Below the pieces are notes generated by a model. It worked only from the letters and a program-made list of their open reading frames with translations. It was not told the DNA's origin and did not search any database. A stretch of DNA of 64,000 nucleotides, from positions 121,360 through 185,359 of the IMG/VR virus record IMGVR_UViG_3300032007_000006. One strand, 5' to 3'. This document shows positions 23,343 to 28,928 of this stretch, in pieces. Position 1 is the stretch's first letter, and each line of letters starts with the position of its first letter. This DNA comes from a virus (lineage: Duplodnaviria; Heunggongvirae; Uroviricota; Caudoviricetes). The position numbers were made by a program, and so were the translations under genes.

Positions 23343-24776
23343 CTAGAACTTGAAGTTACTGGTGTCTATCTTTTTTCTTCTGTGGTTTCTGGAAAGATTG
23401 GAAGAGAATACGCTTCTTTCGGCTTCTTCATTGTCCTTTCTTGCGCTCTCTGCAATAGGCATGTCCATGTCTCCCTCTCCAGTCTTTGGATTAATGTAGT
23501 CTGCCAGTTTCATCTTTTCCTTGTTTACGGAAAGACGAAACATCTTCTTCTGATTGATGTCAAAGTATCGGTTTTTCAGCTGCTTCACCACGAGTCTTGC
23601 TTCGGCATCATCCTGTGGAGTGGTGATCAATGCAAGAATTAGATCACATCCATATGCAACGGCATATGATGCACTGATTGAATCCAGTCCAAGAGACTCG
23701 CCTTCCGAATAGCCCTGTCTGTTGGACTGCATGGCCGTCCAGCCAACAATGTCCTTCTCAACGCAGAGACCACGAATTTCCTCTGATATGGCCTTCAGCA
23801 CCATATGGTCTGGAGCCTTGGAATCTCCCTTGTATCTCAATGAAGTCATGATGCCAAGATAGTCGAAGAACACCACATCAGGAACGAAGTTCTTCTTGGC
23901 CTTCAGTTCGTCCAGAAGATATCTGATGTGTCCCACGTTGCACTGCGAAGTGGGATACTGCTTGACAATCAGTTTTCCATGCGTTTTCTTCACTAGAGCA
24001 TCAACTTTTCCAACGAAGTCATCCTTCTTTAGATTCTTCAGTCCATCAATTGGAATGTCCAGCATGTTGGCGTCTATTCTTTCCAGAACCTTGTCTTCAG
24101 ACATTTCAAAAGACAGATAAAGACAATTGTATCCCTGCCTGATGTAGTCACAGGCAAAGGAGCACATGGCACCAGACTTGAACCCGCCAGTGTTGGAAGA
24201 CATTAAGCAGTTCAGCGTCTTTTTCGTCACTCCGCCCTTGGTAATGAAGTTCATTGACTCCAGAAGGAATGGTATTCTGTTTTCATCGGCATTGTACAGT
24301 TCCCATCTTTCAGCCGCATCATCAAAGGCCATGCCAATGTTGGCGTCAAAAGTGACGGAAAAGGCCTTCTGCAGCTTGTCTGGAATCAGTGGATCTGGTC
24401 CCTTTTCGCCAAATTTCTCTGCACCTTCCAGCAGGGCATTGTAGTATATCTGACGCTGTATCCAGTTTTCAGTGGCCTTTGAAAGCCATTCAATGTCCTG
24501 AGTTACTTCTCCATCCTTGAAAAAGGATATTATCTCTTCAACGTCCTTGTGATCCTTTTCAGAAACGTCCTTGTCCCTGTCTTCCATCACGGCAATGATG
24601 TCAGGACTGCATCTTCTTCCATATTTCTTGACGTACCGAGATATGTGCTTGAATACTCTTTTTGTTGGAGGCTCCTGAAACATGGAAGCGTCCAGAAATG
24701 GAAACGCTTTCTTGAAAAACTCCTCATTCAGAACTAGATTCTTTAGTATGACCTTTTCTTCAACCTGTTCCATCAA
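23343..24776 (-). CDS. gp41: T4-like replicative DNA helicase (DnaB family)
   Basis: Walker A SSNTGGFKS, FFDYLGI, TAMQSNR, QLKNRY. Confidence 0.95.
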   Translation of the reverse strand: MMEQVEEKVILKNLVLNEEFFKKAFPFLDASMFQEPPTKRVFKHISRYVKKYGRRCSPDIIAVMEDRDKDVSEKDHKDVEEIISFFKDGEVTQDIEWLSKATENWIQRQIYYNALLEGAEKFGEKGPDPLIPDKLQKAFSVTFDANIGMAFDDAAERWELYNADENRIPFLLESMNFITKGGVTKKTLNCLMSSNTGGFKSGAMCSFACDYIRQGYNCLYLSFEMSEDKVLERIDANMLDIPIDGLKNLKKDDFVGKVDALVKKTHGKLIVKQYPTSQCNVGHIRYLLDELKAKKNFVPDVVFFDYLGIMTSLRYKGDSKAPDHMVLKAISEEIRGLCVEKDIVGWTAMQSNRQGYSEGESLGLDSISASYAVAYGCDLILALITTPQDDAEARLVVKQLKNRYFDINQKKMFRLSVNKEKMKLADYINPKTGEGDMDMPIAESARKDNEEAERSVFSSNLSRNHRRKKIDTSNFKF

Positions 24777-25063
24777 TGCCTCTCAAGCATTTCCGAAGAA
24801 ATTGCATTTTTGACTGCTTCAAGGTCTTCAAGTGTGGCCTTCTCAAACCGAGACCTTCCATTTTCCATTGACTCATTGAACATTTCAAGTGGTCTGGCAT
24901 AAAGATTCTGTTCTCCATACAAGGCCTTGTATACTGCCAGAGGTTCTCCACTCTCCGTATGCCATGCAATTCCGAGATATATGTAGAGATAGTTCAGACC
25001 TTCGGAATGCTCTTCCCGCTTGAAGTGCCGAATGCAGTCTCCAGCCTTGAAACGCTCAATCAT
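24773..25063 (-). CDS. DUF1653-family protein
   Basis: RHFK...AWHTESGEPLAVYKALYG...YARPLEMF. Confidence 0.85.
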   Translation of the reverse strand: MIERFKAGDCIRHFKREEHSEGLNYLYIYLGIAWHTESGEPLAVYKALYGEQNLYARPLEMFNESMENGRSRFEKATLEDLEAVKNAISSEMLERH

Positions 25064-25099
25064 TTGTACATCCTATTGAAATAGTTGTCAATCTAAAAA

Positions 25100-25119
25100 T
25101 GGGCGGGTTTCCCCGCCCA
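25100..25119 (-). terminator. GC-rich hairpin after uvsX, likely terminator
   Basis: TGGGCGGG-GAAA-CCCGCCCA then ATTTTT on minus strand. Confidence 0.75.
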
Positions 25120-25128
25120 GCAGTTTAT

Positions 25129-26109
25129 CTAATCTTCATCGTCTGAAGCATTCAGAACTTCTCCAGTTTCTGGATCAACCATTTCATTGTCTGGAGATGC
25201 AGCTCCAAGCTGATATCTGGCTTTGATGTAGTCCTTGAACTTCTGATCCGCAAGAATGCTTCCAAAGAATTCATCACAGTTGGTGTCTTTTTGACGGTAT
25301 TTCTTCTCCTCGCCTACTTTTTGATACCATCCATTGGAAGGCTTGACAACAAAGCCTCCATCAATAGCCAGTTGCAGAAGTCCAGACCATTTGTTTATGC
25401 CTCCATTATATGTCACGTCAAAGGGAAGCTTGGCCTTTTCGCGGACATAGCGGGACTTTTCAATATGAATGGTGTATGTGTATCCAGCAAGATCGGAACC
25501 TTCCTTTATCTGAGACTTTGTAATGATGAAGGCCGTGTTGCAGGAATACATTACGCCTGAATTGTGGGAAATAAGACCATTTGGATGCATATAGGAATGG
25601 GCGTCCTCAACTTCAAGATCATAGACGTCCTTTTCCCCAAGTTCAACAATGTCCACAAGACGAAGCTTCGTGCCATCCAGTCCTCGGAACATCAGCTGCT
25701 TTGGCTCTTCATTTTCGTCCATCATGTCCTTTGCGGCAATCCATTCATTTGCAGTGGAAAGCAGCTTGTGATCTCCAGAGCAGGTCAGCTTGAATCCATC
25801 GGAAAACACCAGACGATAGACTGTTGGATGGCCATTCTCAAGGGTTTCTGGAGTCCAGACATTCAGAACTTCCTTCCATCCTTCATGGGAACGAACCTTC
25901 ATTCCTTTCTTGACATGCTCTATAGCCTTCAGTCCCTGGTCAGTTGCAATGAGCGTCTTGGGAACAACGCATCCACCAGAAATAACGTCCTTGGGATATA
26001 TGGAGTTGTGTGTTATTACTCCGTTTTCTAATGTAAAACAATGTTCATCAGCAACTGTTAGATCATATAATGGAAATGGTTTTATTTTTCTAATCGCTTT
26101 GATTTTCAT
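25129..26109 (-). CDS. uvsX: UvsX C-terminal half: IntC (35 aa) + 11-aa extein + 137-aa mini-intein + C-extein
   Basis: SD GGAGG before ATG 26109; MKIKAIRK...YDLTV...VITHN|S; second intein CVVPKT...LISHN|S; C-extein GVMYS...EKSR...GGINKWSGLL matches T4 UvsX. Confidence 0.9.
   Translation of the reverse strand: MKIKAIRKIKPFPLYDLTVADEHCFTLENGVITHNSIYPKDVISGGCVVPKTLIATDQGLKAIEHVKKGMKVRSHEGWKEVLNVWTPETLENGHPTVYRLVFSDGFKLTCSGDHKLLSTANEWIAAKDMMDENEEPKQLMFRGLDGTKLRLVDIVELGEKDVYDLEVEDAHSYMHPNGLISHNSGVMYSCNTAFIITKSQIKEGSDLAGYTYTIHIEKSRYVREKAKLPFDVTYNGGINKWSGLLQLAIDGGFVVKPSNGWYQKVGEEKKYRQKDTNCDEFFGSILADQKFKDYIKARYQLGAASPDNEMVDPETGEVLNASDDED
25561..25971 (-). mobile_element. Contiguous mini-intein (137 aa, no endonuclease)
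   Basis: C1, block B TCSGDH, block F VYDLEV, terminal HN/S. Confidence 0.9.
26005..26109 (-). mobile_element. Split intein C-fragment (IntC)
   Basis: Block F YDLTV and block G HN/S at the N-terminus of a separately initiated ORF. Confidence 0.9.
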
Positions 26110-27121
26110 TGTTAGCCTCCTTTGGCTTATGCTTGCAGTTATCCATATGCCATCGCAAAAAAGCATTTGGATATCCATTACAAGTTTTTCCACAATAAGG
26201 ACAAGTCAAGGTTTGATATTCAGTTTGTTCAGTAAACAGTTTTTTAAACTGAGGATCATTTTCATATTCCTCAAATTTTCCAAATTGTGTTTCAAATTCT
26301 CCTTTTGAATATATTTTTCCTTTATATTCAACACGTTTTGCCATTGGATTTCCAGAACCTTTATGCTCTTTGGACATTTTTTCAAAATGTTCCTTGTATT
26401 TTTCTGGATTTTCATTATAACATTGAATTATCTTCTCCTTTCTAATTTCCTTTGCTTCGGGAGACATATTCAGTCTTCCATTTGAAATCTTTTGAGAACG
26501 TATTTTACGTTCTTCTTCTGTTAGATTAACTGTTTGCATATCATGGCATTTTTGTCTAAATGCTGCCATATATGCTTCATCTTGTTTACGTTCTTTCCAT
26601 AGAGATTTTAGAATGTTTGATTGGTTTTCGTGTCGTTCTTCTGAATCCCAACTATGTTTTACAACTTCTTTAAAATGTTCCTTTTCTTCATCACTTTTAG
26701 ACGCCCATTTATTTCGTAATTTATCAGACACAATAAGTTTATCTTCATCACTTTTAGACGCCCAAGTTTTTTTAAGTGAATCAGATTTACGTTTCATCGC
26801 TTTTTGGTATTCAATTTTATCCATGTGTTCAAATGGATGTTCTGGCCAACAATATCCATGTTCTTCGATAAGATTGGCAAAGCACTTGTCTGAAACCACA
26901 TTAAAAAGTTTACTGTAATACTTTCCATATTCAGCAAGTTCCTCTTTATTGTCGGTTTCTTCAAGAATGATAGTAGTTATATCATCTCCATATTCAGACA
27001 AGTGCTTTAGCCAATAGTGTCCAGAACCTTTATACTTGTATGGATTTTGTTTAGAAGTAATGCAAAGATACTTCAAACCAGTTACATTATGTTGTTTCAG
27101 CATTAGTTTGTAGGTTTTCAT
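26090..27121 (-). CDS. Free-standing GIY-YIG-like (Seg-type) homing endonuclease
   Basis: YKLMLKQHNVTGLKYLCIT...YKGSGHYW; repeated WASKSDE modules; C-terminal CPYC; AT-rich; sits between IntN and IntC. Confidence 0.75.
   Translation of the reverse strand: MKTYKLMLKQHNVTGLKYLCITSKQNPYKYKGSGHYWLKHLSEYGDDITTIILEETDNKEELAEYGKYYSKLFNVVSDKCFANLIEEHGYCWPEHPFEHMDKIEYQKAMKRKSDSLKKTWASKSDEDKLIVSDKLRNKWASKSDEEKEHFKEVVKHSWDSEERHENQSNILKSLWKERKQDEAYMAAFRQKCHDMQTVNLTEEERKIRSQKISNGRLNMSPEAKEIRKEKIIQCYNENPEKYKEHFEKMSKEHKGSGNPMAKRVEYKGKIYSKGEFETQFGKFEEYENDPQFKKLFTEQTEYQTLTCPYCGKTCNGYPNAFLRWHMDNCKHKPKEANNENQSD
26685..26764. repeat. 23-bp direct repeat (two copies) in the endonuclease gene
   Basis: TCTTCATCACTTTTAGACGCCCA at 26685-26707 and 26742-26764, encoding WASKSDE. 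Confidence 0.85.
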
Positions 27122-27398
27122 TGCTTATTTCCGTCAATGAACACCCAACATTAAGGTTATCTGCTCTTATCCATTCGCCATCGCAAAGAAATTTATGGTT
27201 TCCAGTACAGTGAATTAATGTTCCATCTTCACACTCAATTTCGTAGTATGTTTTGTCTTCAATTGGAATACGTTCTGGATTAACGACATCTAAAACTTCT
27301 TTATAGCCGTTTGGAGTAAGAACCTTATCCCCAATCAATACATCACAGATTTGCTTAATGCCGGATGCAGTCACAACTCTTGTGGAGTATTTAAGACA
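27087..27398 (-). mobile_element. Split intein N-fragment (IntN)
   Basis: Block A CLKYSTRV, block B CTGNHKF, then stop with no block F/G. Confidence 0.9.
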
Positions 27399-28001
27399 AC
27401 CCATCTCTTTGTAAGTATGTGCTATAATCAGACATGATAGATTCTTCATCGTTATGTGAGGCGTAGTGATGCGGAACAGGCTTTTTATTTCCTGCGCTCT
27501 AGTCATGTCCTTTGAAGAGTTTTCTGCCATTGCATTCTCATATTCCTTCTTGGAAGCGAGATTGCCAATGGAGTCAACCATCATGAATACATGGTCTCCA
27601 CGTTCAACTGATTCCAGTCTGGAAACAAGATCGAATTTCAGTTCTTCAATGTTGGTGACAGGAATATGCACCACCCGTTCAACATCTATGCCAATGGAAG
27701 CCAAATAGTCGGAAGGAGTGCCAAATTCCGAGTCATAGAAGAGGCCAACTGCATCGGAATACTTGTCCAGATAGGCCTTCATCGAGTATAGCGCCAGCAT
27801 TGACTTGAAGGATTTGCTGGCTCCAGCCAGAACAGTAACGCCAGGCGTCAATCCACCTTCCAAATCGCCAGAAAATGCAATGTTCAGAATTGGAAGGTCT
27901 GTCCTGCAGGTCTCATTGGTAGTGAAGTATATGGAATCTTTGAGTATTGAAGCCGTTTTTACTTTTCCTGCCTTATTGAGCTTGTCTAATAGAGTTCCCA
28001 T
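27087..28001 (-). CDS. uvsX: UvsX N-terminal half (201 aa) fused to split intein IntN (103 aa)
   Basis: Walker A GASKSFKS, YDSEFG, VDSIGNLASKKE, AHTYKEMG|CLKYSTRV...CTGNHKF. Confidence 0.92.
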   Translation of the reverse strand: MGTLLDKLNKAGKVKTASILKDSIYFTTNETCRTDLPILNIAFSGDLEGGLTPGVTVLAGASKSFKSMLALYSMKAYLDKYSDAVGLFYDSEFGTPSDYLASIGIDVERVVHIPVTNIEELKFDLVSRLESVERGDHVFMMVDSIGNLASKKEYENAMAENSSKDMTRAQEIKSLFRITTPHITMKNLSCLIIAHTYKEMGCLKYSTRVVTASGIKQICDVLIGDKVLTPNGYKEVLDVVNPERIPIEDKTYYEIECEDGTLIHCTGNHKFLCDGEWIRADNLNVGCSLTEISNENLQTNAETT

Positions 28002-28009
28002 TCATTCTC

Positions 28010-28222
28010 CTAGCCCAGCTTGTGGACGTTGCTGTAGTCTCTGTAGAAGTCAAAGTCATCCTTTCCAGACTTTTTGGCCCTCCATCCAAGAGGACAATGC
28101 GCCAGCATTTCGTGTATGTTTTCAGGCCAATAAAACTCTGGATTTCGCACTCCATAGCAAGAAACAGCACCAGTATTGAATTTTTTGAAATTTTTGCAGA
28201 TGCTGCAGGGATTCTGTCTCAT
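28010..28222 (-). CDS. Small Cys-containing hypothetical protein
   Basis: SD AAGGAGG; CSIC...C...C. Confidence 0.6.
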   Translation of the reverse strand: MRQNPCSICKNFKKFNTGAVSCYGVRNPEFYWPENIHEMLAHCPLGWRAKKSGKDDFDFYRDYSNVHKLG

Positions 28223-28223
28223 T

Positions 28224-28928
28224 CTAGCCCTCCTTAATGTCGGAAAGCATGATGCGTCTTAGTATTTGCTCGACTTCAAGTTCAAGTTCTTCAAGAGAGC
28301 CATCATTGTAGATTGCACCATCAAGCTTCGGATTCTTCTGGAGAACTTCATATTCCGAATGATCAATGCCGAAGTCCTTCTCGATAATGGCTCTTTCCTC
28401 TTTGGTTTCAGGAGTGAGGCCAAGCTTCCACCAGTCGGGAATGGCTTCCCTGCGGAAGATGCCATAGTGGAACACCCTCCAGTGCATCTTGCGAAGCTTG
28501 TGAATGAGCTTCAGTTCCTGGGAATATCTAACGTCAGGAATGATGGCAAGAAAATTTCCACTGGTGCAGGAATGAAGTCCATTATAGATCCGATTTTCAA
28601 GAGCTAAAGTCCACACATTGGGAGAGATGACTTCCTTCATTCCTTCACCAAGCTTAATGAGAATCTGCCTCCAGGAGAGGTCCTCGCCAAACCAGCGTTT
28701 GGTATACTTGATTGGAGCTTCCTTGTCTTCAATGTCTTCTTCTCTGATGTCAAGCACTAGACGCGCCATTTCCTTGAAAGGCTCTGCAAATGAAGTCTTG
28801 AGAATTTTTTCAATTCCAAGATTTTCCTTGACCGCTTCGACCTTCTTCACCAGAAGGTCTGCAACGGTATCCTTGCCAGAACGCTTGAAACCAGAGAGGG
28901 CCACAACGATTCCAGAAGTATTGTCCAT
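28224..28928 (-). CDS. Deoxynucleoside monophosphate kinase (T4 gp1-like)
   Basis: P-loop SGFKRSGKDT, SFAEPFK, RQILIKLG, IPDVRY, HSE. Confidence 0.85.
   Translation of the reverse strand: MDNTSGIVVALSGFKRSGKDTVADLLVKKVEAVKENLGIEKILKTSFAEPFKEMARLVLDIREEDIEDKEAPIKYTKRWFGEDLSWRQILIKLGEGMKEVISPNVWTLALENRIYNGLHSCTSGNFLAIIPDVRYSQELKLIHKLRKMHWRVFHYGIFRREAIPDWWKLGLTPETKEERAIIEKDFGIDHSEYEVLQKNPKLDGAIYNDGSLEELELEVEQILRRIMLSDIKEG

Follow-up and report, generated by a model that had tools for sequence, protein, structure and literature searches.

The stretch of DNA analysed here (the window, 64,000 nucleotides, nt) covers positions 121,360 to 185,359 of the IMG/VR virus record IMGVR_UViG_3300032007_000006. 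The full record is 352,419 bp long with a CheckV completeness of 99%. It was found in sequencing runs of bovine gut metagenomes and represents an uncultured, T4-like jumbo phage. In this phage uvsX, the gene for the phage RecA homologue, occupies the outer two of three overlapping open reading frames (ORFs), all on the minus strand, as seen in the sequence and the ORF list. The first ends in the N-terminal half of a split intein (IntN), the middle one is a putative homing endonuclease gene, and the last begins with the C-terminal half (IntC) and carries a second, contiguous mini-intein. The stretch of UvsX from the HTY motif to GxMYS is the DNA-binding loop L2 known from RecA and UvsX; the insertion point after ..EMG is named site a and that after ..SGG site b. 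The features of the locus are listed below, with protein lengths in amino acids (aa) and C1 denoting the first cysteine of an intein.

28001 to 27087, minus strand: uvsX N ORF, 304 aa, made up of UvsX residues 1-201, a Cys at 27398, the 103-aa IntN and a stop.
27399 to 28001, minus strand: uvsX N-extein, residues 1-201, with the Walker A motif GASKSFKS and the C-terminal end HTYKEMG; matches to 3io5 and to PHROG.
27087 to 27398, minus strand: IntN of the split intein at L2 site a, 103 aa, with C1 at 27398, block B TGNH and the stop at 27089-27087.
26090 to 27121, minus strand: putative free-standing homing endonuclease gene, 343 aa, sharing 35 nt with the N ORF and 20 nt with the C ORF.
26116 to 26123, minus strand: Shine-Dalgarno sequence AAAGGAGG, within the end of the nuclease gene and 6 nt upstream of the C-ORF ATG.
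26109 to 25129, minus strand: uvsX C ORF, 326 aa, with its ATG at 26109, within the final 20 nt of the nuclease gene.
26005 to 26109, minus strand: IntC of the split intein, 35 aa, MKIKAIRKIK...VITHN, followed by the +1 Ser.
25972 to 26004, minus strand: 11-aa extein SIYPKDVISGG between both inteins, the core of loop L2, as read from the sequence.
25561 to 25971, minus strand: contiguous mini-intein at L2 site b, 137 aa, CVVPK...ISHN, followed by the +1 Ser.
25129 to 25560, minus strand: uvsX C-extein, SGVMYS... to the end, 143 aa and a stop; matches to 3io5 and to Pfam T4_UVSX_C.
25100 to 25119, minus strand: hairpin resembling an intrinsic terminator, directly 3' of the uvsX-C stop, with 8 pairs (7 of them G-C) and then a T run; a consensus match only.

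An earlier sequence-only reading of this DNA had given the same N ORF, the same C1 at 27398, a 103-aa IntN, IntC at 26109-26005 and a Shine-Dalgarno-led start, and all of these agree with the layout above. The ORF list offers a GTG at 26193 as an alternative start of the C ORF; the ATG at 26109 is preferred because the Shine-Dalgarno sequence precedes it and because relatives begin at MKIK. That reading had also joined the exteins as HTYKEMG-SIYPKDVISGG-SGVMYS, a string that is indeed collinear with T4 UvsX but that silently drops the 137-aa second intein, which had gone unnamed. Its estimate of about 345 aa for spliced UvsX has to be corrected, since the exteins sum to 201+11+143 = 355 aa. 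With a second, contiguous intein inside the C ORF, mature UvsX would need one trans-splicing and one cis-splicing step.

By sequence comparison, the host protein is a UvsX/RecA-family recombinase, with a RecA core that includes Walker A and a UvsX C-terminal domain. The N-extein aligns with chain residues 6-173 of T4 UvsX (PDB 3io5), ending at HTYE (E 2e-55), and the C-extein with chain residues 188-332, starting from GPMYS (E 2.8e-39), so that in these alignments one enzyme is laid out in two collinear minus-strand ORFs. The N half also matches PHROG 97, UvsX-like recombinase (E 2.6e-59), and the C-extein matches Pfam T4_UVSX_C (E 1.7e-15). The 14 T4 residues left unaligned in the middle correspond to EMG, SIYPKDVISGG and S of the phage UvsX; because the alignments stop and resume there, both inteins fall between the HTY motif and GxMYS.

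Both the split intein and the mini-intein fit the residue pattern of class 1 inteins (HINT domain), as judged from their sequences. In the split intein, blocks A, B, F and G are conserved, and the class 1 residues are C1, TGNH, D16 of IntC, HN and the +1 Ser; the corresponding set in the mini-intein is C1, SGDH, YDLEV, HN and the +1 Ser. Across 13 site-a IntN sequences, C1 and the block B residues T and H are kept, C1 being missing solely from the L005 row of the alignment, which was trimmed one residue short, and the block F Asp, the penultimate His, the terminal Asn and the +1 Ser are invariant across 15 site-a IntC sequences. Against the contiguous site-a intein of a relative (P0017; 126 aa), IntN and IntC are collinear from end to end at 45% identity, and the break in the split intein coincides with the usual place of nested endonuclease domains. 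The solved structure nearest to IntN is the gp41-1 intein 6qaz (E 3e-8). IntN has a net charge of -8 and the N-terminus of IntC is basic (MKIKAIRKIK), a charge polarity that is also seen in several known split inteins (PMC2677866).

The site-b mini-intein is recognized by Pfam Intein_splicing (PF14890) with 52.1 bits against a cut-off of 35.8 (E 8.1e-14). Its identity to the fused split intein is 37%, and the unsplit relatives P0002 and P0003 carry it at 81-85% identity. Across 185,579 prokaryote genomes, the IntN profile matched only distant inteins, at about 30-45% identity, mostly partial and with no evident RecA context. At site a, unsplit relatives read G-LFPKDV where this phage reads G/S-IYPKDV (the slash here and below marks a splice point), the +1 Ser being mostly absent from unsplit alleles. 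Some intein-free site-a alleles (P0010, P0024 and P0025, all with unsplit uvsX) are one residue longer, with EMA-SMYPKDV or EMG-TLYPKDV, and the extra residue may be the footprint of a past intein, a +1 Ser or Thr left behind after precise loss. Given these residues, we infer that the two UvsX halves would be joined by trans-splicing.

A model of the middle gene product supports the earlier proposal of a homing endonuclease between the halves, its activity being a prediction. The AlphaFold (AF2) model of the 343-aa protein, built on the family alignment, has a mean predicted local distance difference test (pLDDT) score of 82.5 and shows a GIY-YIG fold in residues 1-90, then helical repeats and a C-terminal CxxC..H..C motif (CPYCGK..RWHMDNCK). 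The best match is the catalytic domain of I-TevI: Foldseek aligns residues 3-86 with it over 95 columns (probability 1.00, template modelling score 0.70 by target, root-mean-square deviation 2.4), and VIA aligns 82 of 92 residues of the N-terminal domain (Z 8.9, deviation 2.6). The next structural matches of this domain are the GIY-YIG nucleases PD-T4-3, T4 EndoII, UvrC-N and HIGLE. A fold search of AlphaFold Swiss-Prot with the same model gave weak GIY-YIG intron-endonuclease rows only, and the family profile found nothing meaningful among PDB sequences (best E 0.35). On this modelled fold, the middle gene would be a GIY-YIG-fold endonuclease.

The members of its family are 320-360 aa long and come from metagenomes only, with about 20 invariant positions at identity down to 32%; Y18, N83 and E87 are among the invariant residues. 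Over residues 196-330 the protein shares 33% identity with annotated homing endonucleases of coliphage JSE and its relatives. The JSE enzyme carries NUMOD3, and the 343-aa protein itself has no Pfam module. The zinc-finger motif is 67-69% identical to that of Seg-like endonucleases of Acinetobacter phages, and in shorter relatives the N-terminal domain is joined to NUMOD3, NUMOD1 or the DNA-binding domain of I-TevI. Homologues at 51% (L002), 43% (L003/L004) and 36% (L005) identity all lie between an IntN-ending and an IntC-starting half of uvsX, which ties this GIY-YIG-fold clade to uvsX site a. No other copy of the nuclease was found in the phage's own genome. A site-b nuclease (L009) was considered as a member of the same family, but its hhalign probability against the site-a nuclease profile, 24%, is too low to unite the two.

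The closest allele, L006, comes from another study and has the same three ORFs, with 306, 337 and 327 aa. Ratios of non-synonymous to synonymous substitution rates (Ka/Ks) against it are 0.014 for the N-extein, 0.21 for IntN, 0.17 for the nuclease, 0.016 for mini-intein b and 0.047 for the C-extein. IntC is 100% identical as protein, with 0 non-synonymous changes, and all 9 changes in the GIY domain of the nuclease are synonymous. As Ka/Ks is low throughout, all parts are under purifying selection, with no sign of decay.

Misassembly was the weak point that the sequence-only reading had named in advance. In run X3, from another sample and study, a 4,262-nt contig spans 25123-28300 with 0 differences, so that neither the stop after IntN nor the three-ORF layout is an accident of assembly. 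Relatives with the same layout, among them one with a 92% identical N-half protein, include L006, L002, L003 and L005 from other studies.

Run X6, from a third study, yields a 1,304-nt contig with an empty site. Its two matching stretches are 25162-25996, with 15 differences, and 27439-27862, with 2; these flanks are about 98% identical, and the contig joins 25996 to 27439 directly: 45 letters replace 1,442 nt. IntN, the nuclease and IntC are missing from this contig, and mini-intein b is retained. The replaced stretch of the window includes 48 nt of extein (40 before the intein and 8 after), and 45 letters are 48 minus one codon, which is consistent in length with the difference between unsplit G-LFPKDV and G/S-IYPKDV. 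The cassette is thus polymorphic for presence and absence between phages that are about 98% identical, and a near-identical phage with an empty site is the expected target of homing. At the DNA level, this phage and the unsplit relative L012 are 80% identical overall, too diverged to reveal a local divergence tract at site a.

The hairpin at 25100-25119 is the only terminator-like site on the minus strand in 24700-28400, and there is none between the three ORFs. Because the ORFs overlap and the terminator comes only after uvsX-C, the three would form one transcript. Sigma-70-like sites occur in the region at chance level only. The neighbours of uvsX are T4-type replication genes; a gp41-like helicase lies at 24776-23343, and a 345-aa ORF at 30284-29247 may encode the primase, as its T4-type position suggests.

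A uvsX gene split at site a or at the neighbouring site b is common in metagenomes, as judged by sequence matches, and is present in at least one cultured phage (described below). A search with the N half gave 6,467 matches, of which the best 120 clusters (90% identity) were classified: 62 are split at site b, 20 are split at site a, 23 are unsplit with a contiguous site-b intein and 11 are intein-free. One further cluster, P0017, is the mirror image of the present locus, contiguous at site a and split at site b. An exhaustive search with the C half over 1.84 billion representatives at 50% identity found 21 site-b splits, six site-a splits without a second intein, and six with the layout of this phage, a site-a split together with a contiguous site-b intein. 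The 2.9-kb region had no megablast match among 50,697 phage records.

Several of these relatives are of interest in themselves. P0017 (L008:3501-4805) carries its contiguous 126-aa intein at site a, then a 10-aa extein and a split IntN at site b; with this mirror image, the two L2 sites, 10-11 residues apart, are found in nature split and contiguous in every combination. In L002:2569-5972 (ENA ERZ24773444, a 68.6-kb contig), uvsX consists of three ORFs with three inteins. The ORF at 2569-2817 of L002 encodes UvsX 1-66 through the Walker A motif GASKSFK, a 16-aa IntN (CCKPDTILEVYIDEDE) and a stop, an atypical split; the second ORF opens with a roughly 126-aa IntC ending in HHN/T, runs on to site a and ends in IntN(a); downstream are a GIY-YIG gene and then IntC(a), 11 aa, mini-intein(b) and the C-extein. 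At L010:4373-4644 (JGI 3300037321, a 264-kb contig), the site-a uvsX halves, of 290 and 199 aa, are separated by a 270-nt gap with no endonuclease gene, like the gp41-7 locus of Dassa et al. (PMC2677866).

Three more intein-bearing genes were found outside the window in the same phage genome by tblastn with the inteins of the locus. The ORF at G000:C1:231223-232317 resembles a superfamily 2 (SF2) helicase and ends in ..LDE/C, IntN and a stop. A P-loop protein at G000:C1:247177-247554 and 248711-249625 is broken at ..GGAG/C into an ORF with IntN and a stop, and an ORF with IntC..VHN/SGKG about 1.15 kb downstream. The ORF at G000:C1:252983-254362 is terminase-like, with an intein C-part ..EVSN/CAF. 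The 352-kb phage thus has at least four intein-bearing genes, and at least three of its inteins are split.

The explanation that we favour, with a probability of roughly 80%, is that uvsX has been fractured by a split-intein/homing cassette in L2 and that its product is a 355-aa recombinase. UvsX most likely has to be assembled at the protein level. The mobile cassette would consist of IntN, a GIY-YIG-type homing endonuclease gene and IntC, set into the L2 codons after HTYKEMG (site a), with the three overlapping ORFs probably read as one transcript. Two uvsX polypeptides would be made, UvsX(1-201)-IntN and IntC-SIYPKDVISGG-(mini-intein b)-UvsX C part. IntN, which is acidic, and the IntC with its basic N-terminus would pair into a HINT fold, class 1 trans-splicing would join Gly201 to Ser, and the mini-intein 11 residues downstream would leave in cis, giving the 355-aa recombinase with L2 intact. 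The nuclease would cleave the intein-free uvsX of co-infecting relatives near site a, and repair would copy the cassette in (homing).

Some results weigh against this explanation or support it only weakly. In a complex prediction, which lends weak support to the pairing, IntN and IntC score 0.59 together, against 0.00 for the best control, with at least 93% of contacts in agreement between runs and a partner pLDDT of at least 67; the mark used is passed by 58 of 80 solved complexes and by 2 of 110 mismatched pairs, and scores up to 0.60 count as weak. The score may, moreover, reflect likeness only, because similar complexes are solved. Published trans- or cis-splicing of any uvsX intein was not found. 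The 343-aa nuclease has no Pfam or PHROG match, with Pfam tried up to E 10. Under an alignment made by eye, YKGSGHY36W of the protein presumably corresponds to the R27-W region of I-TevI, which would place a Y at the position of the catalytic Arg here and R, K, L or H in relatives; catalysis by the nuclease may rely on different residues or be partly lost. The T4 late-promoter motif TATAAATA is absent from the window, a hairpin that would cover the start codon of the nuclease gene falls short of significance (z -1.3), and RNA-labelled libraries contain the region only as contigs, which are no proof of transcription.

Three alternatives bear on these points. The split intein may splice while the nuclease is a decaying or domesticated passenger without homing, the cassette being inherited only vertically. 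The missing Pfam GIY-YIG match and the variable canonical Arg position would suit such a passenger, as would split-uvsX loci without a nuclease gene such as L010 with its 270-nt gap. We nevertheless hold this to be unlikely: no relative examined has a broken nuclease ORF, a nuclease Ka/Ks of 0.17 and a GIY domain free of non-synonymous change do not resemble decay, about 20 positions are invariant at identity down to 32%, and the cassette is present or absent in phages that are about 98% identical.

It is less probable still, and indeed very unlikely, that the UvsX pieces are held together by the intein halves as a non-covalent complex without ligation, in the manner of the intein-less split NrdA of phage Aeh1. 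Split genes are known to work without being spliced (Friedrich 2007, as cited in PMC2677866), but here the splicing residues C1, T..H, D, HN and the +1 Ser are all conserved, and a HINT domain of about 140 residues together with a 137-aa intein would fill the DNA site in L2. The +1 Ser is also extra relative to most unsplit alleles, as expected of a splicing nucleophile. An assembly artefact or a pseudogene, in which the stop after IntN would be an error, has a negligible chance of being correct, since an independent sample yields an identical 3.2 kb, L006, L002, L003 and L005 repeat the three-ORF layout in other studies, and every part is under purifying selection.

With the fractured-gene explanation preferred, uvsX joins the hosts of this architecture. 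The homing of the cassette would depend on a recombinase that the selfish cassette itself makes dependent on protein splicing, and the filled and empty alleles in near-identical phages provide a substrate pair for homing tests. For protein engineering, the locus offers a canonical split intein related to gp41-1 with Gly at -1 and Ser at +1. Since this split intein shares a polypeptide with a related cis-splicing intein, natural orthogonality is implied. A more speculative idea, which we think improbable, is that the two inteins (37% identical, 11 residues apart) form an ordered, mutually orthogonal two-step maturation switch of UvsX. If so, the recombinase would be active only after one bimolecular and one unimolecular splicing event, which would time UvsX during infection for the phage or for the cassette, and the 11-residue extein between the inteins would be a natural minimal substrate for three-piece ligation.

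Inteins in RecA-family recombinases are familiar from cellular genomes. The mycobacterial RecA inteins (M. tuberculosis and M. leprae) resemble those described here in their choice of host protein but are contiguous, with an endonuclease domain nested inside. In M. leprae RecA the site, at about residue 205, would lie in L2 and near the position homologous to site a. For VidaL inteins, UvsX-1 and UvsX-2 are reportedly listed in work of the Mootz laboratory (by Thiel and colleagues in 2014 and Neugebauer and colleagues in 2017), although a literature search could not confirm UvsX as their host. VidaL is an atypical split intein with a 16-aa IntN (PMC13014065). The VidaL inteins are likewise natural split inteins from phage-like metagenomic DNA. 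They break behind the first strands, which leaves an IntN of about 16 aa, whereas in this phage the split is of the canonical kind (103/35 aa); in uvsX, the atypical kind was observed at the Walker A site of L002.

Next to its uvsX, T4 carries segA, a free-standing gene for a GIY-YIG endonuclease; SegA cuts inside uvsX (PMC2988022), which makes uvsX a known homing target. T4 shares with the present locus the combination of a GIY-YIG gene and uvsX, but its uvsX is unbroken and has no intein. A closer parallel is the cultured Proteus phage PM2 (GenBank MF001355), in which the uvsX halves are annotated merely as two recombination proteins and the intein is unannotated. Like the bovine gut phage, PM2 has a canonical split intein in loop L2 of uvsX with a GIY-YIG gene between the halves, and its nuclease shares the C-terminal zinc motif, CPxCGK...RWHFDNCK. 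However, PM2 is split at site b (after ..TGG, with a +1 Thr), it has no second intein, and its nuclease has canonical GIY/YIG motifs. The sequence-only reading had called a RecA-family host at this site unfamiliar. This is borne out in print, in that full-text searches on UvsX with intein or split intein yielded no description of a split uvsX, but not in sequence collections, where uvsX split at this or the neighbouring site is common in metagenomes and PM2 has it split at site b.

The fractured-gene architecture was defined by Dassa, London, Stoddard, Schueler-Furman and Pietrokovski in 2009, with gp41, IMPDH, DnaE, NrdA, NrdJ, ligase and terminase as hosts and GIY-YIG or Vsr-like endonucleases (PMC2677866). 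Their examples include gp41-1, gp41-8, NrdJ-1, IMPDH-1 and NrdA-2, and UvsX appears there only as an intact neighbour (PMC2677866). The present locus is an instance of this established architecture, which is widespread in public data, and the earlier claim to that effect is supported by the intein blocks, the collinear contiguous site-a intein, the GIY-YIG gene and the empty allele. As in the genes of Dassa et al., a DNA-metabolism gene of a T4-like phage is broken within an intein, IntN and IntC lie at ORF ends, a free-standing endonuclease gene sits between overlapping ORFs, and IntN is related in sequence to the gp41-1 intein. Unlike those genes, the host is uvsX, a second, contiguous intein follows 11 residues on, and the nuclease comes from a clade with the GIY-YIG fold that escapes Pfam. 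What is particular here is therefore the pair of a trans and a cis intein in L2, the clade of nucleases missed by profiles, the filled and empty alleles, and the several more split inteins in the same genome.

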